A stretch of 64,000 bases of DNA from Candidatus Wildermuthbacteria bacterium (lineage in GTDB: Bacteria; Patescibacteriota; Minisyncoccia; Minisyncoccales; PEYH01), in the NCBI GenBank assembly GCA_037445205.1, contig JBBIKX010000001.1:8767-72766 (forward strand), read 5' to 3'. The position numbers and the translations under genes are program-made. The notes beneath the pieces were generated by a model that was not told the DNA's origin, made no database searches, and was given only the letters and a program-made list of their open reading frames with translations. Below are positions 40,534 through 62,859 of the stretch, one piece after another (positions within the stretch are counted from its first letter, which is position 1; each line of letters starts with the position of its first letter).

Positions 40534-40561
40534 TTGAAATTTTTTTTGATTCTGATAGATT
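40534..40561 (+). promoter_or_regulatory. Weak candidate promoter of cassette B1
   Basis: TTGAAA(40534-40539), 16-nt spacer, TAGATT(40556-40561). Confidence 0.3.
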
Positions 40562-40589
40562 GAAAAAATAACCAAAAGGAGGTGAGACA

Positions 40590-41588
40590 GTGTCTTGCGA
40601 TACAGCCGTTATCGTGAATGTGCAGGCGGGCGCGGGAATGACTCGCTGGAAGTTGGCGCATCTTATGCGCCAGTTAAACCGCATTCTTTCTGTGCCCAAG
40701 AGTTGTGTCTGGCTGACTCGGGAAACCGGCGAGAGCAGCGCCACATCCCTGGCATCTTTTGCCCAAAGCAGAGGGGCCAAAGCAGTGATTGTCTTTGGCG
40801 GAGACGGCACGGTTCATCAGGCAGTAAACGGCCTGAAACTGCCCGATCCTTCAATCTCTGTTGGCATTGTGCCCTGCGGTACGGCCAACGTGGTTGCTTC
40901 CTGCCTTGGAATGCCAAGAAATGTCAAAGCGGCGCTGGAAGTCATAAGGGCCGGAATGACAAGAAAGATCGATCTGGGAATCCTGGAGGGAGATGGCCTT
41001 CCAAGATACGCGGTTTCCACGCTAAGCGTGGGACTTGACGCGATGATAAACGAACTGGCGCATCGTGTTAAGCCCCTGTTTCGGAAATACCATCTGCCAT
41101 CCATCTTGGGCTACATTCCGCCTCTTCTTAGATACACTCTTAATGAAGTTCCGCTCTACGATGTAGCTGTCAAAAAGGATGGATTGGTTTTTTGCGAAAG
41201 GATATCCTTTCTGGCAGTAACAAACACTCCATGGTATGGAGGCGGATTGGTGGACAGAACTGCCAAGCTTGACGACGGGCTGTTTAACATGATATGCGCC
41301 AGAAAGATCAGGTCCCGCGATCTTCCCTGGTGGATGTTTCAGATGTGGCAGGGAAATCACATCTATTATCCCAAGGTTTTTCTGCCCTGCTCTTCGTTTT
41401 CAGGATTAAGCATAAGTTCTGACTTTCCCTTGCCCGCGCAGATTGACGGACAGATTCTGCCCGCCCGGAAGAACATCGCAATCTCTGTCGTTCCCCGCCT
41501 CCTGCAGGTTTTCGCACCTTTGCCCCAACCAGAAAGAACAAAGCATTCTGGTTGGGGTTGTTTTTTTGATATGTCCAGGTTCAGATAG
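40590..41588 (+). CDS. Diacylglycerol-kinase catalytic-domain (YegS/BmrU-type) lipid kinase
   Basis: GTG start 5 nt after GGAGGTG(40578-40584). Contains VIVFGGDGTVHQAVNGL and VGIVPCGTANVVASCLG, hallmarks of the DAGK_cat family. Confidence 0.8.
   Translation: MSCDTAVIVNVQAGAGMTRWKLAHLMRQLNRILSVPKSCVWLTRETGESSATSLASFAQSRGAKAVIVFGGDGTVHQAVNGLKLPDPSISVGIVPCGTANVVASCLGMPRNVKAALEVIRAGMTRKIDLGILEGDGLPRYAVSTLSVGLDAMINELAHRVKPLFRKYHLPSILGYIPPLLRYTLNEVPLYDVAVKKDGLVFCERISFLAVTNTPWYGGGLVDRTAKLDDGLFNMICARKIRSRDLPWWMFQMWQGNHIYYPKVFLPCSSFSGLSISSDFPLPAQIDGQILPARKNIAISVVPRLLQVFAPLPQPERTKHSGWGCFFDMSRFR
41523..41567 (+). terminator. Strong rho-independent terminator lying inside the last codons of the kinase ORF
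   Basis: Perfect 12-bp stem: CCCCAACCAGAA(41523-41534) pairs with TTCTGGTTGGGG(41546-41557), followed by TTGTTTTTTT. Confidence 0.7.
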
Positions 41589-41591
41589 ATA

Positions 41592-41620
41592 TTGACCAAA
41601 ATATTCTTTTATGATATAAT
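41592..41620 (+). promoter_or_regulatory. Near-consensus sigma70 promoter of cassette B2
   Basis: TTGACC(41592-41597), 17-nt spacer, TATAAT(41615-41620). Confidence 0.6.
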
Positions 41621-41647
41621 TTGGATATCCTAAGGAGGTGATGCGTG

Positions 41648-41815
41648 ATGAAGGCGGGTATAGTGATTTTCCGGCATACACAAGTAGAAACGCTGCAGGC
41701 GACGGTTAACGCGTTTCTCAAGGTTCACGCTCCACATATGGAGAACCTTGAGCATCAGCTGGTAGTGACTCCAGACGGCACTATCGTCTTGACCCTGCTT
41801 TATCGGGCTAAGTAG
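41648..41815 (+). CDS. 55-aa soluble protein, unknown family
   Basis: Not in the ORF track (below 60 aa). AAGGAGGTG(41632-41640) lies 7 nt before the ATG. Translates to MKAGIVIFRHTQVETLQATVNAFLKVHAPHMENLEHQLVVTPDGTIVLTLLYRAK-stop. Confidence 0.6.
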   Translation: MKAGIVIFRHTQVETLQATVNAFLKVHAPHMENLEHQLVVTPDGTIVLTLLYRAK

Positions 41816-41837
41816 GGTTCGTAAGGAGGGAGGAACG

Positions 41838-42101
41838 ATGCGTAAGCTCTTTGCGGCGATTGTCGGACTCTACCGTCGGCTCTGGATGATTGAGCCCCGC
41901 CGTTTCAAACGGGGACAAATCATCCAGTTCGAAGACTGGCGCGATGGCATTAGAGTTGCCAAAGCCAGATACCTGGTTCTCGGCAATACACCCTCCGAGA
42001 AGAGGTACGTCCTGGAGGGTGTTGGGCCCGGCAACAAGGGGAGGCGCGAGCGCCTTCGCTTCCGCTGGGTTGACAAACACGCACATTTGGTGCGCGGCTG
42101 A
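41838..42101 (+). CDS. 87-aa basic protein, unknown family
   Basis: AAGGAGG(41823-41829) lies 8 nt before the ATG. The ORF is in the track and is followed by a terminator. Confidence 0.6.
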   Translation: MRKLFAAIVGLYRRLWMIEPRRFKRGQIIQFEDWRDGIRVAKARYLVLGNTPSEKRYVLEGVGPGNKGRRERLRFRWVDKHAHLVRG

Positions 42102-42111
42102 AATGCCTGTT

Positions 42112-42155
42112 CCGCCCGGGACTAAGGAGGAGTTCCGGGCGGTTGTTGTTTTTTG
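42112..42155 (+). terminator. Terminator of cassette B2
   Basis: CCGCCCGG(42112-42119) pairs with CCGGGCGG(42135-42142), followed by TTGTTGTTTTTT. Confidence 0.65.
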
Positions 42156-42204
42156 ATGAAGTTTCTGGTATCGTATCAAGTATCGCACATTGGGAGGTGG
42201 AACG

Positions 42205-42348
42205 GTGCACAAATGGGTAATCTTTGCGGTAGTGGTGATCCCAAGCATTCTCATCGGTTCCCTTATCTGCCTTTTCCAAGGAAAGGGCAGAAGAGTGTGG
42301 TCCTTCGCTAAGGGGAGAGTCTTTGCTTGGGCGGAAACGGATTGGTGA
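42205..42348 (+). CDS. 47-aa single-pass membrane peptide
   Basis: GGAGGT(42194-42199) lies about 5 nt before the GTG at 42205. Translates to (M)HKWVIFAVVVIPSILIGSLICLFQGKGRRVWSFAKGRVFAWAETDW-stop. Not in the ORF track (below 60 aa). Confidence 0.5.
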   Translation: MHKWVIFAVVVIPSILIGSLICLFQGKGRRVWSFAKGRVFAWAETDW

Positions 42349-42371
42349 ACACAATCCTCTTGGCACTTGTT

Positions 42372-42405
42372 AACCGGCGCATCTTCTGATGGGCCGGTTC
42401 ATCTT
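42372..42405 (+). terminator. Hairpin at the right edge of island B
   Basis: AACCGGC(42372-42378) pairs with GCCGGTT(42393-42399), followed by CATCTTTT. The T tract is weak. Confidence 0.4.
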
Positions 42406-47561: not shown

Positions 47562-49058
47562 ATGAGCTATATTGTTAAAATAATATTTTTTTGGAAAAGA
47601 ATTTATTTGCTGATAATGATTATCTGTTTTTCTTTATTCGCAGAGTTTGCGTTGGCAGAAGAAATTAAACAAGAAATATATGTCCCCAAAATAGAAATAG
47701 GCGATGGAATTACTCATTTAGCCAGAAAAACAATAATTGAATTTATAAAAAGAGAGGGTATTGACCCCAGAATTACGGTTCCGCACTTGGTTTATATTGA
47801 GGATCGTCTTGCGATAGAAAAAGGAAAGAAAACTATTTATTTAAAAGATTTTTCGCCAATAAATTTTTCCAGTGAAGAAATATCTAGGGCGATAAATAAA
47901 GCGTTGCTGCTTAACGAAAAGCAGATTTTAAGCTTAGAGCACTACGCTCTGTCCGTAAGCGCATATTTTGACTTAATAGTTAATAATAAGTTGCGGTTTA
48001 ATATAAAAAAAATTTCCGATTATAATTTGCCCCAGATAACCGGATTAGGATATCGCTTTATTGTTTACAAAGACAATATTTTTTTATTAGACATAGAGAA
48101 AAAAATAATGATTTTAGATATAGCGAATTCTAAAACCCCGAAGTTAATTGCCGAATTTTCTCCACCCCCTGGGGCTCGATGTAATAATCTTGCCTCTCTA
48201 CAAGACAATTTGATCGCTCTTTTTTGCTGGAATTCTTTTTCCGAGAGAATAATCTATTTTCTCGAGGTAGACAATCCTTTTGATTTGAAAATTATTTCAG
48301 AGTATAAGTTCGGCAAGGGAAATCTTATGGGAAATGCCGCTATAAAAGATTCTTTGCTTTTTTTGAGCGATTATAATCTATTTGAGGCAATAGACGTAGG
48401 CGATATTAAAACACCAAAATTAATTTTTAAACATGAATTTGATGATAGCTTTGAGCCGGTGAATATAACAAAAAAAGATAATCTTTTAATAGTCGGCTAT
48501 GATAAAAACTCTCCCCAGATCTTATGGTTGTTTGATGCCAAAAATTTTGAAATAAAAGAATTAGAAATACAAAACGAGAAAGCGATAAAACATCGCTATT
48601 TTTGGAGAAGCAGGGAAGGAAAAAACTGGCTCTTGGGTTCGCCCAGTATTTATTATTATTTTCCTTCATTGCTATTTATCAACTCCAAGGATATTTCTTT
48701 GGGAAAAAATAGCGGAATCTTGAACGTTAAGCCCTTTGAATTTCAATGTCCTTTATTAGAAAATCCAATTTTTGACTATGATAGCAAAGATGATGTCGTA
48801 TATCTTTATGTTCGCAGCCGCTATTTGAGAGACCCGACAAACAATATAACAGAATGTTGTGATGAGAATCTTTATATTTTGGATTTTAATGCTATTGGAG
48901 AAGAGCCACTAAAAGAGATTATAAATATCGGAAAATCCCCAGTTCTATTTAAAAATATGAACCTACAAAAGAGTAGATTATTTACTGTAACCGACTCCTT
49001 AACGACTTCTTGGCAAAAACTGGAAATTTATCAATTAATAAAAACTATCCATCCTTGA
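47562..49058 (+). CDS. Hypothetical secreted or anchored repeat protein (LVIVD/beta-propeller-like repeats, tentative)
   Basis: 498 aa with an N-terminal TM/signal segment. Recurrent D[IV].....PKLI motifs. Confidence 0.55.
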   Translation: MSYIVKIIFFWKRIYLLIMIICFSLFAEFALAEEIKQEIYVPKIEIGDGITHLARKTIIEFIKREGIDPRITVPHLVYIEDRLAIEKGKKTIYLKDFSPINFSSEEISRAINKALLLNEKQILSLEHYALSVSAYFDLIVNNKLRFNIKKISDYNLPQITGLGYRFIVYKDNIFLLDIEKKIMILDIANSKTPKLIAEFSPPPGARCNNLASLQDNLIALFCWNSFSERIIYFLEVDNPFDLKIISEYKFGKGNLMGNAAIKDSLLFLSDYNLFEAIDVGDIKTPKLIFKHEFDDSFEPVNITKKDNLLIVGYDKNSPQILWLFDAKNFEIKELEIQNEKAIKHRYFWRSREGKNWLLGSPSIYYYFPSLLFINSKDISLGKNSGILNVKPFEFQCPLLENPIFDYDSKDDVVYLYVRSRYLRDPTNNITECCDENLYILDFNAIGEEPLKEIINIGKSPVLFKNMNLQKSRLFTVTDSLTTSWQKLEIYQLIKTIHP

Positions 49059-53540: not shown

Positions 53541-55024
53541 TAAATTCATCAAAAAAATATATTCCCGTCATCGGGCTTGAAATACATACGGAATTAAAAA
53601 CTAATTCCAAAATGTTTTGCGGGTGCAAAAACGATTCGCAGGAAAAAGAAGCGAATTTGAATATTTGTCCTGTTTGCATGGGTCATCCCGGCACTCTCCC
53701 CGTTATAAACAAAACAGCGATTCGTTTTGTCATAAAAACAGGGATTGCTCTGAATTGTAAAATTACAAAAGAGTCGCGATTTGAAAGAAAAAATTATTTT
53801 TATCCCGATCTTCCAAAAGGATATCAGATTTCTCAATACAAAGAGCCGTTTTGTTTTAATGGCTTTTTAAAAATAAATAATAAAAAAATAAGAATTAGAA
53901 GGGTTCATTTGGAAGAAGATACTGCCCGCCTGATACACTCCAAAAATGGATATTCGCTGATTGATTTCAACCGCGCCGGCATTCCTTTAATGGAGCTTGT
54001 AACGGAGCCGGACATAGAATCTTCTAAAGAGGCATCAGACTTCGCAAAAAAACTTCAGTTGATCCTGAGATATTTAAATGTTTCCAGCGCTGACATGGAA
54101 AAAGGGCAATTGAGAGTGGAGGCAAATATTTCATTAATAAACGCAAATTTTAAAGCAAAAAACGCAAAACTAGGAACAAAGGTGGAGATCAAAAATTTAA
54201 ATTCGTTTAGGGCAGTTGAGAGGGCGATAGAATATGAAATAGAAAGGCAAAAGGAGTTACTATTAAATGATGAGAGGGTGGCGCAGGAAACAAGAGGATG
54301 GGATCCTCAATCAGAAAGAACCTTTCCCCAGAGAGAAAAAGAAGAGGCGCATGATTACCGCTACTTTCCAGAGCCGGATTTGCCCCAGATTTATATAAAA
54401 AAAGACTATCTGGAGGCGATAAAAAAAGGAATTCCCGAACTTCCCGATCAAAAAATAAAAAGATTAAAAGAAGAATTTTTTGTTAACGAACAATCAGCCC
54501 AGATTCTTGTCTCTAACAGAGATTTAAGCGAGTATTTTGAAAAATCGGCAAGCGAGCTTTTAAGATGGTCAAAAGACAAAAGATTAGATCAAAAGAGCCA
54601 AAAAGAATTGATACAGAGCGCCGCCAACTATCTTTTGACAGATTTACTCGGCTGTCTTTCAGGGAAAGAATTTTCAGAAAAAGATTTTCCCATAACGCCT
54701 GAAAATTTCGGAGAGTTTATCGCTCTTGTCCGCGATAAAAAATTCACAAGCAAAATGGCAAAAATTCTTTTAGGAGAGATGTTTGATTCCGGCCAAGATC
54801 CCTCAACCATAATAAAAAAAAGAGGATTAATCCAGACGGACAACGAAGATGAGATTAAAAAAATAGTGCAAAAAATAATTTCATCAAATCCTCGGGCATT
54901 TGAAGATTATAAAAAAGGAAAAGAAAATGCTCTTCAATTCATGATTGGACAAATGATGAAAGAAACTAAAGGCACTATAAATCCCCAGATGGCAAAGAAA
55001 GCGTTGATTGATTTTTTAAAATAA
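53537..55024 (+). CDS. gatB: Glu/Asp-tRNA amidotransferase subunit B
   Basis: Contains IGLEIHTELKT, VCMGHPGTLPVINK and RVEANISL. Confidence 0.95.
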   Translation: MINSSKKYIPVIGLEIHTELKTNSKMFCGCKNDSQEKEANLNICPVCMGHPGTLPVINKTAIRFVIKTGIALNCKITKESRFERKNYFYPDLPKGYQISQYKEPFCFNGFLKINNKKIRIRRVHLEEDTARLIHSKNGYSLIDFNRAGIPLMELVTEPDIESSKEASDFAKKLQLILRYLNVSSADMEKGQLRVEANISLINANFKAKNAKLGTKVEIKNLNSFRAVERAIEYEIERQKELLLNDERVAQETRGWDPQSERTFPQREKEEAHDYRYFPEPDLPQIYIKKDYLEAIKKGIPELPDQKIKRLKEEFFVNEQSAQILVSNRDLSEYFEKSASELLRWSKDKRLDQKSQKELIQSAANYLLTDLLGCLSGKEFSEKDFPITPENFGEFIALVRDKKFTSKMAKILLGEMFDSGQDPSTIIKKRGLIQTDNEDEIKKIVQKIISSNPRAFEDYKKGKENALQFMIGQMMKETKGTINPQMAKKALIDFLK

Positions 55025-55032
55025 TATATAAT
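55004..55032 (+). promoter_or_regulatory. Near-consensus promoter of cassette C
   Basis: TTGATT(55004-55009, inside the last gatB codons), 17-nt spacer, TATAAT(55027-55032). Confidence 0.55.
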
Positions 55033-55135
55033 ACTTAAAATCCAGAATAAGGAGGTGGTCGCCGGGATACAGTCCAAAGAGGGCGAGGGGCGTTTTCGGA
55101 AGCAAAACCGGATCTTTCTTGCGAAAGGAGCATCG

Positions 55136-55333
55136 ATGCCAGCAGTAAATCTTGTTAACGTGGCGAGGTCATTGCCGGACGAAGAGGCGGAGAGGCTTTT
55201 GCTCATCGAGCAAAGCAATCCTGATTGCCTCAGGGCGCTTTTTGCGGTCGTTCTGAGCGCCGGAACGCTGGAAAAAGCTGTTCCTCTGATCCAACGAGTT
55301 CTTGCTGGCGCACCCTTGTTTCCGGGCGGATGA
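55136..55333 (+). CDS. 65-aa helical protein, unknown family (a 92-aa form from the GTG at 55055 is possible)
   Basis: AAAGGAG(55124-55130) lies 5 nt before the ATG at 55136. The same frame is open from 55055, but that GTG sits inside an SD (AAGGAGGTG 55049-55057). Confidence 0.5.
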   Translation: MPAVNLVNVARSLPDEEAERLLLIEQSNPDCLRALFAVVLSAGTLEKAVPLIQRVLAGAPLFPGG

Positions 55334-56341
55334 AACTGGATGGGGCTCCCTTCGGGAGCCCCCTTGTTTTGTTAAAAAAGTATTTATTATTTTTCTGGCT
55401 TTTTTTTTATCCCCAACCCAATTTACTCTTTTGTCTTTTTTAAACCAGGTTATTTGTCTTTTGGCGTAACTTTCAATTGCTTTTTGGAGCATTCCGACCA
55501 TTTCATCATAGCCAATTTTTTTTTGAAGATAGCAAGCAATATATCTGTATTCCAATCCAAATTCTTCAAGCCGTTTCCAGGAAACGCCGTCTTTTCTTAG
55601 CGCTCTGACCTCTTTTATCATCCCCTGATTTAATCTTTTGTATAGCCGTTTTCTGATTAAATTTTTTAGCTCTTTTTTTTCTTTCTTGATGCCGATAATG
55701 AGCAAATCAAACAATTGGCTTTTTTTTATGACGGGTACCGGTTTTTTTGATTTCAAAACTATTTCAATTGCCCGGATTAATCTGCGGGGATTTTTTTTAT
55801 CAATAATTTTTGCCCGCCGCGGGTCCAGTTTTTTTAACATTTGATAAAGCTGGTTTGGCAATTTTTTTTCCAGTTTTTTCCTTAATTTCCAGTCCGGCGG
55901 AATTTTTGGGATGACGATTCCGTCAACGACTGATTGAATATAGAATCCGGTGCCGCCGCAAAGAATGGGCAGCTTATTTCTCTTATGGATTTCCCTTATT
56001 TTTTTTAATGCCATTTTTTGATACTGGGCGACCGTAAATTTCCTTTTTGGAGAAGCAACATCCAAAAGATGATGTTGGATGCCTCTATAAAGATATGACT
56101 GTTTTGAAATTTGAGATTTAGGACTTGGAGTTTGTTTAGAAATTAGAAATTTGGAATTAGAAATTTTATCTCGTGGAACCTTCCCGGTTCCGATATCCAT
56201 TTTGCGATAAACCTGACGGGAATCGGCCGAAATCACCTCTCCGTTAAAATTTTTTGCCAGTGCTACCGCCAAATCGCTTTTTCCCGAAGCAGTGGGTCCA
56301 AGAATAACTAACAATATTTTTCGGTCCGTTTTTTTTGACAT
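55169..56341 (-). CDS. miaA: tRNA dimethylallyltransferase MiaA. The conserved core is 55364-56341; the ORF then runs 64 further codons antisense into cassette C.
   Basis: P-loop LGPTASGKS, plus DSRQVY, GGTGFY and AKRQITWF. The homologous end (KIINTFLTKQ) coincides with the composition boundary at about 55364. Confidence 0.88.
   Translation of the reverse strand: MSKKTDRKILLVILGPTASGKSDLAVALAKNFNGEVISADSRQVYRKMDIGTGKVPRDKISNSKFLISKQTPSPKSQISKQSYLYRGIQHHLLDVASPKRKFTVAQYQKMALKKIREIHKRNKLPILCGGTGFYIQSVVDGIVIPKIPPDWKLRKKLEKKLPNQLYQMLKKLDPRRAKIIDKKNPRRLIRAIEIVLKSKKPVPVIKKSQLFDLLIIGIKKEKKELKNLIRKRLYKRLNQGMIKEVRALRKDGVSWKRLEEFGLEYRYIACYLQKKIGYDEMVGMLQKAIESYAKRQITWFKKDKRVNWVGDKKKARKIINTFLTKQGGSRREPHPVSSARKQGCASKNSLDQRNSFFQRSGAQNDRKKRPEAIRIALLDEQKPLRLFVRQ
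55342..55372 (+). terminator. Terminator of cassette C
   Basis: GGGGCTCCC(55342-55350) pairs with GGGAGCCCC(55354-55362), followed by CTTGTTTTGTT. Confidence 0.7.
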
Positions 56342-56363
56342 AATCCCAAGAATATTATATCAT
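56335..56363 (+). promoter_or_regulatory. Candidate promoter of cassette D
   Basis: TTGACA(56335-56340, overlapping the miaA start codon on the other strand), 17-nt spacer, TATCAT(56358-56363). The predicted +1 falls at TCCC (56370). Confidence 0.4.
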
Positions 56364-56389
56364 TATAAATCCCAAAAAGGAGGTGGTTA

Positions 56390-56683
56390 ATGTCGTATTA
56401 TTTAGCAATAATGTTTATGTTGCTAAGCGCAGGCTTTGCAAGTGCGGGGTTTAGGGTGATCCGTTATGCCCTTCGAGGAAAGCTGACAGGCACTATGCTT
56501 GATAGAGGCATGATACTCGGTACTGTCATCGTGCTTGTTGGAGTGGGGCTCGCCACGATTCCCATCATCTTCCAGAGCGGGATAAGATGGTGGTGTCTTG
56601 CGCTGGCGCTTGTGGAGGCAGTGGTCTGTATTGGGCTCTGGATGCTGCATGTCTTCTCGTCTGCGTCAATGGATTCACCCTAA
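56390..56683 (+). CDS. 97-aa integral membrane protein, about 3 TM helices, unknown family
   Basis: GGAGGTG(56379-56385) lies 4 nt before the ATG. Hydrophobic segments: YYLAIMFMLLSAGFASAGF, ILGTVIVLVGVGLATIPIIF, WWCLALALVEAVVCIGLWML. Confidence 0.7.
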   Translation: MSYYLAIMFMLLSAGFASAGFRVIRYALRGKLTGTMLDRGMILGTVIVLVGVGLATIPIIFQSGIRWWCLALALVEAVVCIGLWMLHVFSSASMDSP

Positions 56684-56695
56684 GGCGTGGATTGC

Positions 56696-56728
56696 GAGGG
56701 CTCTCTTGTGCGGGGGCCCTCCTTTTTT
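56696..56728 (+). terminator. Terminator of cassette D, abutting the miaB stop codon
   Basis: GAGGGCTCTC(56696-56705) pairs with GGGGGCCCTC(56712-56721) using G-U pairs, followed by CTTTTTT. Confidence 0.6.
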
Positions 56729-58061
56729 ATTCCATCAATTTTCCTCTCAGTCCGTATGGACCAATGTTTATTATTTTGGCTTTAACAAAATTTCCTAAAA
56801 TATTTTTATCTGATTTCAATCTAATGGTTTGATAATGCCTTGTTTTTCCGACATAAAAATCATTTTTTTTGGTGAGTATCAAAACTTCCGCGGTTTTTTT
56901 AAAAAACTTCTTGTTAAAATTTAAAATGGTTTTTTTTAATACTTTGAATAATTCTTTTTCTCTTGTTTTTTTCTTAAAGTTGGGGACATCGTCGTTTAAA
57001 TGAAGGGCGGCTGTTTGAGGCCTTTTAGAATAAGCCGCAATATATCCAAACGCAAATCCGATTTTTTCAAAATTATTTTTTGTATTTTCAAATTGTTTTT
57101 TGGTCTCGCCGGGAAATCCTACAATTACATCAGAAGATACAGCCACTTCTTTTTCGATGCCGCATCTGTATTTTTTAAAATTATTTCTTATTTTTTTAAT
57201 AAGCGCTTTATATTGAGATACAGTGTAGGGCCTATTCATTTTTTTAAGGATTTCATTGTCTCCTGATTGAATTGGAAGATTAATATAGGGCGTTACTTTA
57301 TGGCATTTTGCCATTGTTTTAATTAGTTCGTCGCTTAAATCTTTTGGATGAGAAGAGGTAAATCTTATCCAAAAATTCCCCTCAATATCATTTATCATTT
57401 TAAGAAGCGTTGGAAAATTTATTTCTTTTTCTTTTTTCACTTTAAGGTTTGTGTTTTGGATTTTACCATTATAGGAATTGACATTCTGTCCCAACAGCCA
57501 TACTTCTTTTGCTCCGCTTAAAACGGCCTTTTTTATTTCACAAATAATATCTTGGGCCGGCCTTGAGATTTCTTTTCCTCTTACATAAGGTACGACGCAA
57601 TAACTGCAGAAATTATTGCACCCGGTCATTATCGGAATATAGGCAACAACAGGGGATTGATATTTAGGCATTAATTCAAAATAGTGTTTTTTTTTGAATT
57701 CAACCGACCTAATTTTAAAACCAAGCTTTTTTAATATCTCGGGCAATTTGGGAAGCTCATTTATGTCAAAGATTTCATCGCAGAATTTATTAAGTTCTTT
57801 TTTGTCTTTTTCTAAGATACATCCCGTTAAAATAATTTTATATTTTATATTTTTATTTTCATATTTGAGCCTTATCTTTTTAATTCGAGCGCTTGCTCGA
57901 TCTATCGCCGACTGTCTGACTGAACAGATATTAAACACTATCAAATCCACCCCATCGCATTTATTGGCATGATTAAATCCTGATTTTTCCAAAACGCCTG
58001 CGATTCTTTCGGAGTCAGATTTATTCATTTGGCACCCAAAAGTGATAATATGATATTTCAT
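56727..58061 (-). CDS. miaB: MiaB/RimO-family radical-SAM methylthiotransferase
   Basis: Contains ITFGCQMNKSDSE, GCNNFCSYCVVP and a C-terminal TRAM-like domain. Confidence 0.88.
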   Translation of the reverse strand: MKYHIITFGCQMNKSDSERIAGVLEKSGFNHANKCDGVDLIVFNICSVRQSAIDRASARIKKIRLKYENKNIKYKIILTGCILEKDKKELNKFCDEIFDINELPKLPEILKKLGFKIRSVEFKKKHYFELMPKYQSPVVAYIPIMTGCNNFCSYCVVPYVRGKEISRPAQDIICEIKKAVLSGAKEVWLLGQNVNSYNGKIQNTNLKVKKEKEINFPTLLKMINDIEGNFWIRFTSSHPKDLSDELIKTMAKCHKVTPYINLPIQSGDNEILKKMNRPYTVSQYKALIKKIRNNFKKYRCGIEKEVAVSSDVIVGFPGETKKQFENTKNNFEKIGFAFGYIAAYSKRPQTAALHLNDDVPNFKKKTREKELFKVLKKTILNFNKKFFKKTAEVLILTKKNDFYVGKTRHYQTIRLKSDKNILGNFVKAKIINIGPYGLRGKLME

Positions 58062-58092: not shown

Positions 58093-58536
58093 TTATTCTC
58101 CGATTATTTGAATCTGGATATTTCTTTTTTTAGGATAAGCGAGTTCTATGAAAAGAATGCTCTGCCATAAGCCGAGCTGCAGCTTTCCTTCAATTATATT
58201 TAGGCAGACGCTTGTTGGTATATGCAATGCTCTGCAATGAGAGTGGGCGTTCGGTTTCTCATCCGGACACATATTTACGGTTCTTATTTCAAAATTATTG
58301 TGATTATACGCTTTATTTTTCGGAGAACAATGCTCTAAGTGTTCTTTAATGTCCTGTAAAAGCAACGGTTCGTTTTCATTTACAAAAACAGAGGCGGTTG
58401 TGTGAAGAGACTGAATATTAATAATTCCGTTTTTTACCGCAGTTTTTTTGGTTATTTCTTTAATCCTTTCCGTGATATCGATAATTTGAAGTTCTTCGAC
58501 GGTATCAATAGAGATAATCGAATTTTTGATAATCAT
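58093..58536 (-). CDS. YjbQ/UPF0047 family protein (secondary thiamine-phosphate synthase-like)
   Basis: Contains QSLHTTASVFVNENE, NAHSHCRA and GLWQSILFIE. Confidence 0.75.
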   Translation of the reverse strand: MIIKNSIISIDTVEELQIIDITERIKEITKKTAVKNGIINIQSLHTTASVFVNENEPLLLQDIKEHLEHCSPKNKAYNHNNFEIRTVNMCPDEKPNAHSHCRALHIPTSVCLNIIEGKLQLGLWQSILFIELAYPKKRNIQIQIIGE

Positions 58537-60287
58537 TTTTTTTCTTTGATTTCTTTTTTTATTTTTTCAATGAAATCACGCAATGAAATAACACCTAAAT
58601 TTCCTTTTTCTCTGCTTCTCATGCTTATTTTTTGTTCTTTTTCTTCTTTATCCCCGGCAACAACAACGTAAGGAATTTTTTGAATTTCAGCTTCCCTTAT
58701 TTTTTTAGAAAGCGTTTCATTATCGTCTTTAATTTCCACTCTGATACTTTCTTTTTCTAATGCGTTTTTTATTCCTTGGGAATAAATCAAATGCCTTTGA
58801 GCAATCGGCATTATTGAAACCTGGACCGGAGAAAGCCAAAGGGGCAAAGCGCCTTTATAATGCTCTAATAAAAACGCAATGGTTCTTTCAATCGCGCCGA
58901 TTGAAGAACGATGAATCACAATCGGTTCTTTTTTTGAGCCGTCTTGGTCGATATAAGAAAGATTGAATCTTTTTGAGGCTAAAAAATCGTATTGCACGGT
59001 AAAAGCGGTTTCTTCTTTGCCGGCGAAATTTTTTATTTGAATATCTATTTTGGGCCCATAGAAAGCGGCTTCACCCTTTGCCTCAAAAAAAGGAGATTTT
59101 CTTTCGATTAAAACATCTCGCAAAATATTTTCCGCGAGAAGCCAGGATTTTTTATCCTGATAATATTTTTTAGCATTTTTTAGGTCGCCCAAAGACAATC
59201 TGTATCTGTAATTTTTATTTTTTTCCAAGCCCAGGGCGAAAGATACGCATTCTATCAAATCCAGAACTTTTTTAATTTCTTCTTTTGCCATTTCTTTTTG
59301 GCAGATGATATGGGAATCCGCCAAACAAAAAGATCGCACCCTCATCAGACCGGTTAATTCCCCGGATTTTTCGTATCTATACTGCTTTGCCAATTCGGCC
59401 AAGCGGAAAGGAAGATCTCTGTAAGATCTTGGAGCGTCAAGGTAAAGTTGATAATGATGCGGGCAGGTCATTGGTCTTAGAATCAGCTTTTCTTCGTCAA
59501 CCTGCATCACTGGATACATCGCATCTTTATAATAAGGGTAATGTCCGGAAACTTCATATAGAGCAACGCGAGCCAGATCGGGTGTGTAAATATGCATATA
59601 GCCCCTTTTAATTTCTTCTTCAACTATAAACCTTTCCAGTTCTCTTCTGATTATTGATCCCTTGGGCGTGAAAAGGGGTAATCCTTTGCCTACCAATTCG
59701 GAGAATGTGAACAAATTAAGCTTTTTTCCAATTATCCTATGGTCTCTTTTTTCCGCTTCTTTAATCAGTTCAAAGTGATTATCCAGTTCTTTTTTATTTT
59801 TAAAAGCAACCCCATAAATTCTTGTCATCATTTTATTCTTTTCGCTGCCCCTCCAATAAGCGCCCGCAATCTTAGTTAATTTAAAACAATCTTCTGGAAT
59901 TTCTTTTGTTGATTTTATATGCGGACCTCCGCACAAATCAATAAAATTTCCTGATTCATATATCGTAACCATTTTTTCTTTAAGCTCTTTGATCAGTTCA
60001 ATTTTATACGGTTGATTTTTAAAGATCTTTTTTGCTTCAATTTTAGAAACAAATCTTTTTTTAAATTTGATATTTTGTCGAATTAATTCTTTCATTTTTG
60101 TCTCAATTCTTGATAAATCATCAACGCTAAATCCGCTCCCATCTGAAGTCGTAGCGGGCAAGTCAAAATCATAATAAAATCCATTTTCAATAACCGGACC
60201 TATGCCAAACTTTGCTTTAGGATAAAGTTCTTTAACCGCATGCGCCATTATATGCGCCAGCGAATGTCTGATGGTGTCTAATTTCAT
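58533..60287 (-). CDS. thrS: Threonine--tRNA ligase (lacks the N-terminal TGS domain)
   Basis: Contains RHSLAHIMAHAV, class II motifs and HRSSIGAIER. Confidence 0.94.
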   Translation of the reverse strand: MKLDTIRHSLAHIMAHAVKELYPKAKFGIGPVIENGFYYDFDLPATTSDGSGFSVDDLSRIETKMKELIRQNIKFKKRFVSKIEAKKIFKNQPYKIELIKELKEKMVTIYESGNFIDLCGGPHIKSTKEIPEDCFKLTKIAGAYWRGSEKNKMMTRIYGVAFKNKKELDNHFELIKEAEKRDHRIIGKKLNLFTFSELVGKGLPLFTPKGSIIRRELERFIVEEEIKRGYMHIYTPDLARVALYEVSGHYPYYKDAMYPVMQVDEEKLILRPMTCPHHYQLYLDAPRSYRDLPFRLAELAKQYRYEKSGELTGLMRVRSFCLADSHIICQKEMAKEEIKKVLDLIECVSFALGLEKNKNYRYRLSLGDLKNAKKYYQDKKSWLLAENILRDVLIERKSPFFEAKGEAAFYGPKIDIQIKNFAGKEETAFTVQYDFLASKRFNLSYIDQDGSKKEPIVIHRSSIGAIERTIAFLLEHYKGALPLWLSPVQVSIMPIAQRHLIYSQGIKNALEKESIRVEIKDDNETLSKKIREAEIQKIPYVVVAGDKEEKEQKISMRSREKGNLGVISLRDFIEKIKKEIKEKK

Positions 60288-61983: not shown

Positions 61984-62859
61984 TTATGCTGGTTTATAGA
62001 CACGGTTTACCAGCACTTGGCGGGCAAACGTCACCCTCCATGTCGGGCCTACGAATCCGACTTCCCGGAGCAGTTGTTCCCATTGCGGAATTGCGAGGAA
62101 GGTGTATGTTCCTTCTTTTCCCTTTCTTTGTATTTCAAGGGCGTGACGAAGTATGCTTGTGCCCTGAAGAATTCGGCTAAAATCCCGATTTCTTATGTAG
62201 GGCAGAGGATTGAGCATGTCAGGAAGAGAAGCGACAAACACCCATTGGAAGTGAACGTTTTGTCTGGGAGTAGACCAGACGATATGTCCTCCGGGCTTGA
62301 GCACCCTATGCATCTCTCTGAAAACTTCCCTCATGGCCCTTATGCCTTTTTCGCTTCGAAAGTCAGTTGCATAGGGGATAACTAAATTTGCGATAATTCC
62401 ATCAAAGTGGTTATCGTCGAAGGGAAGTTCTTCGCCAAGATGAGCGAAAACAAGATGCATGGGCAACGTGGGGTGAAGAGATTGCGTTTTCCGCGCCGGA
62501 TCAAGAACTATATCCAGACCAACTACCAATTTGATAGTTCTGCCGGATTTGTTCCATGCCAAGAGAGCCATCTTGGCGGGTCCGCAGCCTACATCCAGCC
62601 AAACTTCGTTAGCTTTGGGCTGGATTAATCCGGCGACTGTCGTTGTAAGGTTGTGGTAGGGTCTTGCCTTTTCCAGGTTTTTGTAAATCCTTGCGTAATC
62701 CCTCCAAAACGCCAACTCTTGTCCCCAAGAGCGGATCCTTCCTCTTGTGAAGGGCGAAAGCCCGTTCTCATTTGCTTCCAGCCACTCTTCTATGCTCTCC
62801 GTGCTTAATCCTTCTCCAAAGCACGGCCCAAGGATCTCTGATATGCTTTTGGTTTTCAT
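61984..62859 (-). CDS. Class I SAM-dependent methyltransferase
   Basis: Motif I LDVGCGPAK, and post-I/II elements (VGLDI, VLKPGGHIVW). AAGGAGGT lies 5 nt upstream of the ATG. Confidence 0.8.
   Translation of the reverse strand: MKTKSISEILGPCFGEGLSTESIEEWLEANENGLSPFTRGRIRSWGQELAFWRDYARIYKNLEKARPYHNLTTTVAGLIQPKANEVWLDVGCGPAKMALLAWNKSGRTIKLVVGLDIVLDPARKTQSLHPTLPMHLVFAHLGEELPFDDNHFDGIIANLVIPYATDFRSEKGIRAMREVFREMHRVLKPGGHIVWSTPRQNVHFQWVFVASLPDMLNPLPYIRNRDFSRILQGTSILRHALEIQRKGKEGTYTFLAIPQWEQLLREVGFVGPTWRVTFARQVLVNRVYKPA

Follow-up and report, generated by a model that had tools for sequence, protein, structure and literature searches.

The window, by which we mean the whole 64 kb stretch of DNA that was analysed (from a Candidatus Wildermuthbacteria bacterium), is AT-rich with 38.7% GC overall. 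The genes miaB and miaA follow each other on its minus strand, and the gap of 385 bp between them (56342-56726) is occupied by a unit of opposite orientation, which we name unit D and which carries an open reading frame (ORF) of 97 codons, D97. A preliminary description made from the sequence alone had regarded unit D as a cassette inserted in inverse orientation into an ancestral miaB-miaA operon. The locus comprises the following features:

56727-58061, minus strand: miaB, tRNA methylthiotransferase (Pfam UPF0004 and Radical_SAM)
55169-56341, minus strand: miaA, tRNA dimethylallyltransferase, start at 56341 (Pfam IPPT, E=1e-63, residues 43-303)
56342-56726, plus strand: unit D, inserted, 385 bp, with an AT-rich promoter and leader followed by the GC-rich ORF and terminator
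56335-56363, plus strand: candidate sigma-70 promoter of unit D, TTGACA-N17-TATCAT, 11/12 consensus matches
56342-56352 and 56368-56378, plus strand: direct repeat AATCCCAAGAA / AATCCCAAAAA, flanking the -10 box
56374-56383 and 56718-56727, plus strand: perfect 10-nt inverted repeat AAAAAGGAGG / CCTCCTTTTT, of marginal significance
56377-56386, plus strand: perfect Shine-Dalgarno sequence (SD) AAGGAGGTGG, 3 nt upstream of the D97 ATG
56390-56683, plus strand: D97 ORF, 97 codons with ATG start, predicted three-helix membrane protein
56696-56728, plus strand: intrinsic terminator of unit D, hairpin 56696-56721 and T6 56723-56728

The ancestral junction and the insertion of unit D

To compare the arrangement with that of other bacteria, miaA neighbourhoods were gathered from 185,579 species genomes and from JGI metagenomes. 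In about 40 loci of Patescibacteria with miaA 41-67% identical, miaB is located directly upstream of miaA on the same strand, and about 30 of these show overlapping genes or a gap of at most 50 nt. In two loci (L097 and L115) miaB and miaA are even fused as one ORF. The closest outgroup found was L165 (Logan SRR8371833) with miaA 69% identical and the gene order thrS-yjbQ-miaB-miaA-gatB-tmk, which matches the synteny of the window. The junction of miaB and miaA in L165 reads GAATAA-ATAA-ATGTCAAAAAAA, with a spacer of only 4 nt (ATAA). The window keeps both GAATAA and ATGTCAAAAAAA, which are now 385 bp apart, and miaB has retained its native stop codon (TAA at 56727-56729), so that the C-terminal ...E-TAA is common to the window and L165. 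These neighbourhoods supported that miaB and miaA would be an ancestral, tightly coupled pair. The operon context is that of co-oriented, adjacent genes for an IPPT protein and a radical-SAM methylthiotransferase, with activities as predicted from Pfam.

Unit D is absent from L165 and is present at the identical site in L001 (GCA_964383555.1) and L002 (Logan SRR11582140). It is about 93% identical at the nucleotide level to the copies in L001 and L002, and the backbone is about 94% identical. Because unit D is lacking in L165 and present at one site in L001 and L002, the insertion would postdate the split from L165 and predate that of the three known carriers. An assembly chimera was ruled out, since unit D occupies the identical site in three independent assemblies.

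The 200-nt GC peak at unit D reaches 0.585, compared to a window mean of 0.387 (sd 0.06), and unit D is one of only 8 islands with a GC content of at least 0.55 in the window. Unit D has 51-55% GC versus 31-37% in the backbone; for the ORF alone the value is 0.51, for the neighbour genes it is 0.31-0.37. The -35 box of the candidate promoter (56335-56340) overlaps the reverse complement of the miaA ATG (56339-56341), the -10 box is found at 56358-56363, and the promoter was the top-scoring site in 54800-57000. The -35 box is the reverse complement of sequence in the first codons of miaA (codons 1-2, ATG TCA A), and ATGTCAA is already present in L165 and L003. Since the miaA start sequence which supplies the -35 box predates the insertion, the promoter of unit D would be a hybrid, composed of a resident -35 box and an imported -10 box. 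The terminator hairpin has 10 pairs and -18.9 kcal/mol on the plus strand. The T-run behind it shares its final two T with the miaB stop codon. The direct repeat around the -10 box may be of chance origin. The inverted repeat would allow base pairing between the SD of unit D and the transcript's 3' end, and the two are paired in the structure of minimum free energy.

These data confirmed the anatomy given in the preliminary description and bore out its interpretation in part. The end of miaB at 56727 and the start of miaA at 56341, both on the minus strand, were read directly from the sequence and agreed with the Pfam matches. The ancestral operon fits the tight gaps and overlaps in about 30 loci, the two fusions and the 4-nt spacer of L165, and the insertion in inverse orientation fits the absence from this outgroup and the presence at the same site in L001 and L002. 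A backbone-like composition of this ORF in relatives, which would have spoken against the preliminary description, was not seen: L001 and L002 do have the ORF at this site, but it remains GC-rich. The gap is indeed filled by a plus-strand GC-rich unit for a 97-residue protein, with a T-run touching the miaB stop codon and a TTGACA overlapping the miaA start. The extent of the cassette has to be corrected: its signals are present as described, but the -35 hexamer and the final two T of the T-run come from host DNA and are not part of the cassette.

Coding signal, orphan status and relaxed constraint of D97

In first-order Markov simulations of matched composition only 1.7% of the sequences stayed open for 96 codons (P(open) = 0.017). 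The grand average of hydropathicity of D97 is 1.19, compared to 0.39 +/- 0.31 in the open simulated sequences (p = 0.003), and the joint chance of openness and hydrophobicity is about 5e-5. The D97 stop lies 12 nt upstream of the terminator hairpin. At the three codon positions D97 has a GC content of 0.51/0.45/0.56, a pattern like that of the DAGK gene, a bona fide gene in unit A, which is another GC-rich unit of the window. Its codon usage is shifted by +0.21 log2 per codon toward the cassette class, while backbone genes show values of -0.15 to -0.49. AlphaFold2 run on the single sequence predicted helices at residues 2-31, 37-62 and 67-93 with a mean pLDDT of 68.6. Together with a hydrophobicity above that of the simulations, this agrees with the earlier proposal of a protein with three transmembrane (TM) helices. 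The basic loop RVIRYALRGKLTGTMLDRG sits between helices 1 and 2 and, because of the positive-inside rule, suggests a topology with the N-terminus out and the C-terminus in. We infer that D97 is, or recently was, a gene for a membrane protein that is transcribed, translated and located in the membrane. A structured RNA as the main reading of unit D was rejected, since the coding signal is strong and the fold of the plus-strand RNA reached a z of only -2.45 against shuffles. There was no Rfam match in the whole window at gathering thresholds, nor in 54900-56900 at E <=10, and the other reading frames of unit D had no match in Pfam.

Among 5.8 billion clustered proteins the relatives of D97 were only D97 itself and the allele of L001 and L002. 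A HMMER (phmmer) scan of 1.84 billion representatives also revealed no true relative beyond this allele. An exact-sequence look-up of D97 and miaB gave no result, although D97 itself is contained in the clustered set. The beta-propeller repeat protein P0003 was rejected as a homologue: its match covers D97 residues 15-43 via five repeats, and the resemblance of about 25 residues is inflated by these repeats. D97 had no match in Pfam, PHROGs, NCBIfam or PADLOC, and its AlphaFold2 model had no match with E <1 when compared to viral structures by Foldseek.

D97 evolves at a near neutral rate in its host, without detectable purifying selection. The ratio of non-synonymous to synonymous rates (dN/dS, omega) is 0.98 between the two alleles, with 15.8 non-synonymous and 5.2 synonymous changes, and the substitutions are distributed 9/6/6 over the codon positions. 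The genes tmk, gatB, miaA, thrS and miaB show omega values of 0.06-0.28 and a strong third-position excess. For D97 an omega of <=0.25 was rejected (p = 0.003), and its codon-position pattern is unlike that of the neighbours (p = 0.002). In L001 and L002 a deletion of 14 nt removes the D97 stop, which results in a product of 102 aa reading into the terminator, and the SD is weakened from GGAGGTGG to GGAGATGG. The leader and promoter segment of unit D has 4 changes in 48 nt and is thus no better conserved than the ORF. D97 is most likely a dispensable accessory gene or proto-gene rather than a gene of conserved function.

These findings also bear on another explanation, to which we assign a real if minor chance, namely that unit D is decaying junk. 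A captured foreign fragment would have been patched into a break of the spacer, its gene would no longer be functional in the host or never have been, and it would persist merely as the carrier of a terminator that is harmless to miaB and miaA. The dN/dS close to 1, the even spread of substitutions over the codon positions, the loss of the stop codon and the weaker SD in L001 and L002 and the lack of a homologue all agree with this. Non-conservative changes are located inside the predicted helices (L43P, V46G, S18E), and the overall divergence of 0.072 per site is near the synonymous rate of miaA (0.107). Against decay speaks that the ORF is open in all three assemblies, that the stem of the terminator is preserved via paired indels, one per arm, and that both alleles have kept intact promoter hexamers. 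With about 7% divergence the copies are also too young for visible decay, and a young functional orphan and junk would be inseparable at this stage.

We consider unit D to be probably a lineage-specific, moron-like insertion with a dispensable accessory gene or proto-gene. Several points weigh against this view. Only two distinct D97 alleles are available, which gives the dN/dS a wide error, so that omega = 0.5 was not rejected, and two alleles cannot separate diversifying selection from neutrality. Promoter-like sites are not significantly enriched over shuffles (6 found, 4.6 +/- 2.4 expected). The same holds true for terminator-like sites as a class in this AT-rich DNA (7 found versus 3.0 +/- 1.9 in shuffles). 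Because the class counts are not enriched, the promoter call for unit D rests on the quality and placement of a single site. No phage genes are present near unit D, and there was no PHROG, IMG/VR or phage match. Likewise, no donor was found in IMG/VR (queries D97, C65, B87 and A332), GenBank phages or PLSDB plasmids. Furthermore, unit A, unit C and a 47-aa ORF, the sister units of unit D in the window (see below), remain GC-rich in relatives whose proteins are 54-69% identical. As these units stayed GC-rich through deep divergence, GC-richness alone is no proof of recent transfer. The equation of GC-rich with foreign therefore holds only in part: the composition of unit D is deviant as claimed, but a deviant composition can be conserved in relatives. 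A horizontal origin of unit D is what we infer, from its composition only.

Possible consequences for the expression of miaB and miaA

When the unit D hairpin is read on the minus strand, C·A mismatches replace two of its G·U pairs, which leaves an interrupted stem of -12.4 kcal/mol without a U-tract. The L001 hairpin shows an equal strand asymmetry, and its stem was kept by one indel per arm. The hairpin would thus be a terminator for the plus strand only, which may shield miaB from antisense transcription. Because the stem on the minus strand is weak and lacks a U-tract, read-through from miaB to miaA should not be stopped by the hairpin and no hairpin-driven uncoupling of the two genes is expected. 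In this respect we depart from the preliminary description, which had proposed that the hairpin could uncouple miaB from miaA. It had also stated that the insertion leaves miaA without its native upstream region. This needs correction in so far as an upstream signal may be provided by a promoter-like site on the minus strand within unit D:

56390 to 56362, minus strand: candidate minus-strand promoter TTAACC-N17-TATAAT, called by consensus match only (10/12)

The site lies 21 nt upstream of the miaA ATG and could serve miaA. Its -10 box (56362-56367) overlaps the -10 box of unit D, and its -35 box, which reads TTGCCC in L001, overlaps the D97 ATG. The start regions of unit D and miaA thereby interdigitate within 56 bp, and from this arrangement a mutual interference of the two starts is plausible.

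Taken together, one self-contained transcription unit would have been dropped in reversed orientation into the 4-nt spacer of the ancestral miaB-miaA operon. The resident miaA start would supply the -35 box and the inserted DNA the -10 box, and a leader of about 20 nt with a perfect SD would drive translation of a three-helix inner-membrane protein of 97 residues. The plus-strand-only terminator would end the transcript exactly at the miaB stop, and as a consequence miaB would not be transcribed antisense. Since transcription of the minus strand does not appear to end at the hairpin, transcripts from miaB probably still run across unit D, antisense to D, into miaA. Alternatively, miaA may be served by the new promoter-like site in the AT-rich 5' end of unit D.

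A further explanation of unit D is that not the protein but plus-strand transcription or the RNA itself matters. The transcript of unit D would be antisense to any read-through RNA from miaB to miaA. In this view, miaA expression would drop when unit D fires, as a result of promoter occlusion, collision of RNA polymerases or antisense pairing, and the synthesis of i6A would be uncoupled from that of ms2i6A. The overlap of the unit D -35 box with the miaA ATG, the overlap of both -10 boxes and that of the minus-strand -35 box with the D97 ATG are in line with such a regulatory unit. The missing constraint at the protein level, an RNA that folds somewhat better than shuffles (z = -2.45) and the pairing of the SD with the 3' end also fit. 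However, the perfect SD at ideal spacing, the distance of only 12 nt from the end of the ORF to the terminator and the open and hydrophobic frame, with a joint chance of about 5e-5, favour a coding function. No Rfam family was found even at E <=10, leader and promoter with their 4 changes in 48 nt are not conserved above the level of the ORF, and too few sequences are available for a covariation test. We therefore regard a regulatory unit as quite unlikely.

With unit D as a moron-like insertion, the locus represents a clean and datable case of a foreign-looking orphan gene wedged into a 4-nt operon spacer with neither gene broken. After the insertion miaA would have to rely on read-through or on a promoter that was newly created. 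The case illustrates how operons erode and how genes are born or acquired in the reduced genomes of Patescibacteria, and it is as such not surprising.

Origin, sister units and likeness to known systems

No transposase or integrase gene is present in or adjoining unit D, whose neighbours are gatB, miaA, miaB, yjbQ and thrS. The ends of unit D show no terminal inverted repeat (TIR) or target-site duplication (TSD), only 9-11-mers at chance level, and on inspection of the sequence no attC-like core site was seen. Unit D is single-copy, with no paralogue among the genome's own proteins and no repeat in the window. In other Patescibacteria the same junction holds different DNA. In L005 (2399-2736) it carries a different 89-aa ORF on the opposite strand with a AAGGAGGTGG SD and a terminator, in L167 (2017-3001) a gene for an IS200-like Y1 transposase with three CAACGAGGACGGGTCTCGTTGG hairpins at its flanks, and in L089 (196-994) a PaaX/Cas2-like gene. 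The miaB/miaA junction thus appears to have been invaded independently in other lineages and may be a recurrent target.

The insert of L167 with its transposase gene and repeated hairpins, and the other inserts in L005 and L089, would also agree with unit D being the remnant of a mobile element or an integron-type cassette aimed at the junction. In that case the hairpin would be a recombination site and not a terminator, and the 10-nt inverted repeat near both ends of unit D could be taken as a further hint. However, this repeat is merely the SD versus the tail of the terminator, and a hairpin with T6 behind it has the form of a textbook terminator. In view of the single copy and the lack of a transposase, integrase, target-site duplication or attC-like core site, such an origin is highly improbable.

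Left of about 55 kb all long genes of the window are on the plus strand, and right of it all are on the minus strand, with the switch at about 55.0-55.4 kb. The cumulative GC skew has its maximum at 56716, and a replication terminus may therefore lie at units C and D. The best dif-like match (55014-55041) reaches 22/28 to a degenerate consensus and does not stand out from the background, where AT-rich matches score 21.

Unit D shares its features with several other units of the window. The window contains four copies of AAGGAGGTG (40576, 41632, 55049 and 56377), and each of them heads a GC-rich unit on the plus strand. In a fifth unit (42193) the SD reads GGAGGTG. An SD match of at least 6 nt was found for only 4/65 long ORFs of the window, even when any of 40 in-frame candidate starts was allowed. 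The other members are:

40590-41588, plus strand: unit A, DAGK/YegS lipid kinase, GC-rich sister unit
42205-42348: 47-aa 'MHKW' membrane ORF, sister unit
55136-55333: 65-aa ORF of unit C (unit spans 55034-55390), sister unit downstream of gatB
61984-62859, minus strand: sixth unit, methyltransferase gene, GC 0.49, SD AAGGAGGT

Like unit A, the 47-aa ORF and unit C, unit D has about 51-58% GC, the same codon usage, an SD of the AAGGAGGTG type, an own promoter-like site and a hairpin terminator. Its leader resembles that of unit C (AAATCC..AA..AGGAGGTGGT). In contrast, the sister units are old, conserved at the protein level and co-oriented with a neighbour, whereas unit D is young, orphan, unconstrained and inverted to both neighbours. 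The DAGK gene and the 47-aa ORF hold their place beside pheS in L163 and L164, with 45-56% GC and strong SDs, and DAGK is 54-56% identical there. L165 (4920-5234, minus strand) holds a homologous, ungapped 65-aa unit C protein.

On this basis unit D could be the youngest of a distinct, lineage-wide class of GC-rich (about 50-58%) small genes with own promoter, perfect AAGGAGGTG SD and hairpin terminator, located between the genes of an AT-rich genome in which native genes hardly ever carry an SD, but we hold this to be unlikely. If it were true, it would mean a dedicated pool of cassettes and a route of transfer or recombination in Patescibacteria without a recognisable integrase, or alternatively a specially translated 'SD regulon' with a composition held by selection. 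Apart from this, the wider group of GC-rich small genes with perfect SD in an SD-poor, AT-rich genome merits more attention than unit D itself, as some members are ancient and in one the allele appears to have been swapped.

Further observations were made on these units and their surroundings. In the stretch from the tRNA genes to pheS (40548-42400) unit A, unit B (ORFs of 56 and 87 aa) and the 47-aa ORF follow each other. In L163 (5900-7850) and L164 (1-1700) unit A and the 47-aa ORF are syntenic and GC-rich, and unit B is replaced or degenerate; the loop of the unit B terminator has a conserved TAAGGAGGA in all three genomes. A likeness by eye of the 56-aa ORF of unit B to a 'MVKTKVIKIRT...' family was not confirmed. 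BLAST revealed no homology between the small ORFs of the window and those of relatives. The methyltransferase gene is co-oriented with its neighbours and is also present in L001. The 85-nt leader of unit C is conserved at the nucleotide level and begins with AAGGAGGTGGT. L001 and L002 carry a 26%-identical unit C allele between conserved flanks (L001 8640-8970), and L166 is without unit C. This looks like an allele replacement at a fixed site, which would have occurred among strains that are 94% identical. Small ORFs, one to four per locus, also lie in the gatB-miaA gap of many relatives (L006, L091, L092, L099, L100, L102, L103, L111). Each is preceded at a distance of a few nt by AGGAGGTG and is more GC-rich than the backbone, and among their products are MraZ/AbrB-like proteins and a family that resembles zinc ribbons (CxxC...CxxC). 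The region downstream of gatB thus has the look of a hotspot for small genes with strong SDs throughout the clade.

Next to unit C, miaA has no stop codon of its own. Its homologous part stops near 55394 and the ORF continues antisense through the terminator and ORF of unit C (55169-55394, minus strand) to 55169. This results in 390 aa in the window, compared to 369 aa in L165, 317 aa in L001 and 303-317 aa in other relatives. Within miaA there is also a low-complexity insertion of about 22 residues (…DKISNSKFLISKQTPSPKSQISKQ…; window 56090-56165). The repetitive, AT-rich DNA that encodes it is lacking in L005 and further relatives. The nucleotide identity between the window and L001 is uneven (58093-60287 region), with 97% for gyrB, 94-96% for gatB/miaA, 82% for thrS and 72% for yjbQ, which suggests a recombination mosaic. 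A segment of 1.46 kb (47566-49027) is absent from L001, and its flanks align at 94-97% identity. It holds a 498-aa ORF with 32% GC and without PHROG or NCBIfam match and represents an indel polymorphism between gyrB and nusG.

We compared unit D to known systems of similar appearance. An integron gene cassette was rejected, since unit D has a 26-nt GC hairpin with T6 instead of attC and an own promoter-like site, such cassettes being usually promoterless; no integrase-like gene was identified among the neighbours in syntenic relatives. An insertion sequence (IS), a miniature inverted-repeat transposable element or an IS200-605 derivative was also rejected because of the single copy, the lack of a transposase and the lack of TIR or TSD beyond the 10-nt complement of SD and terminator. 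For a type I toxin, usually <60 aa with one TM helix, D97 with 97 aa and three helices is too large. No separate antisense RNA gene was recognisable at unit D, and the only promoter-like site on the minus strand faces miaA. The size and the three helices of D97 would fit a class I holin, but the C-terminus SSASMDSP is acidic/neutral, in contrast to the charged basic tail of such holins, and no lysis gene is adjacent; there was also no PHROG match, and Foldseek against viral structures gave E >=1.

Unit D resembles ORFan genes and genomic islets in being a single short gene, restricted to one clade at the species level, without homologues, of atypical composition and under relaxed selection. 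Unlike a typical ORFan it has complete canonical signals, fits exactly into a 4-nt spacer and belongs to a recognisable class of units. The junctions of insertion sequences can create hybrid promoters with one hexamer from each side of the boundary. The putative promoter of unit D likewise takes one hexamer from each side. In contrast to the IS hybrid promoters, the -35 box here stems from resident DNA and the -10 box from the insert, and the promoter would drive the insert's own gene, not an adjacent gene of the host.

The closest likeness in organisation is to phage morons, which are defined as extra DNA with own promoter and terminator and deviant GC, and for which the small membrane protein gp15 is an example (PMC3594210). 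Like the moron gene 15 of phage HK97 (PMC3594210), unit D is extra DNA between otherwise adjacent genes, has a deviant GC content (0.51-0.585 versus 0.31-0.37) and encodes a small predicted inner-membrane product. The candidate promoter and terminator of unit D are strong consensus matches (11/12; -18.9 kcal/mol with T6) in a DNA where promoter-like sites are common, and the terminator would insulate the host operon. Unlike a phage moron, unit D is located in a chromosomal housekeeping operon for tRNA modification, and its -35 box and part of its U-tract are host-derived. As it does not lie in a phage or prophage, unit D is not a moron in the strict sense. Its organisation is best described as that of a putative moron-like orphan gene insertion in a chromosomal operon.

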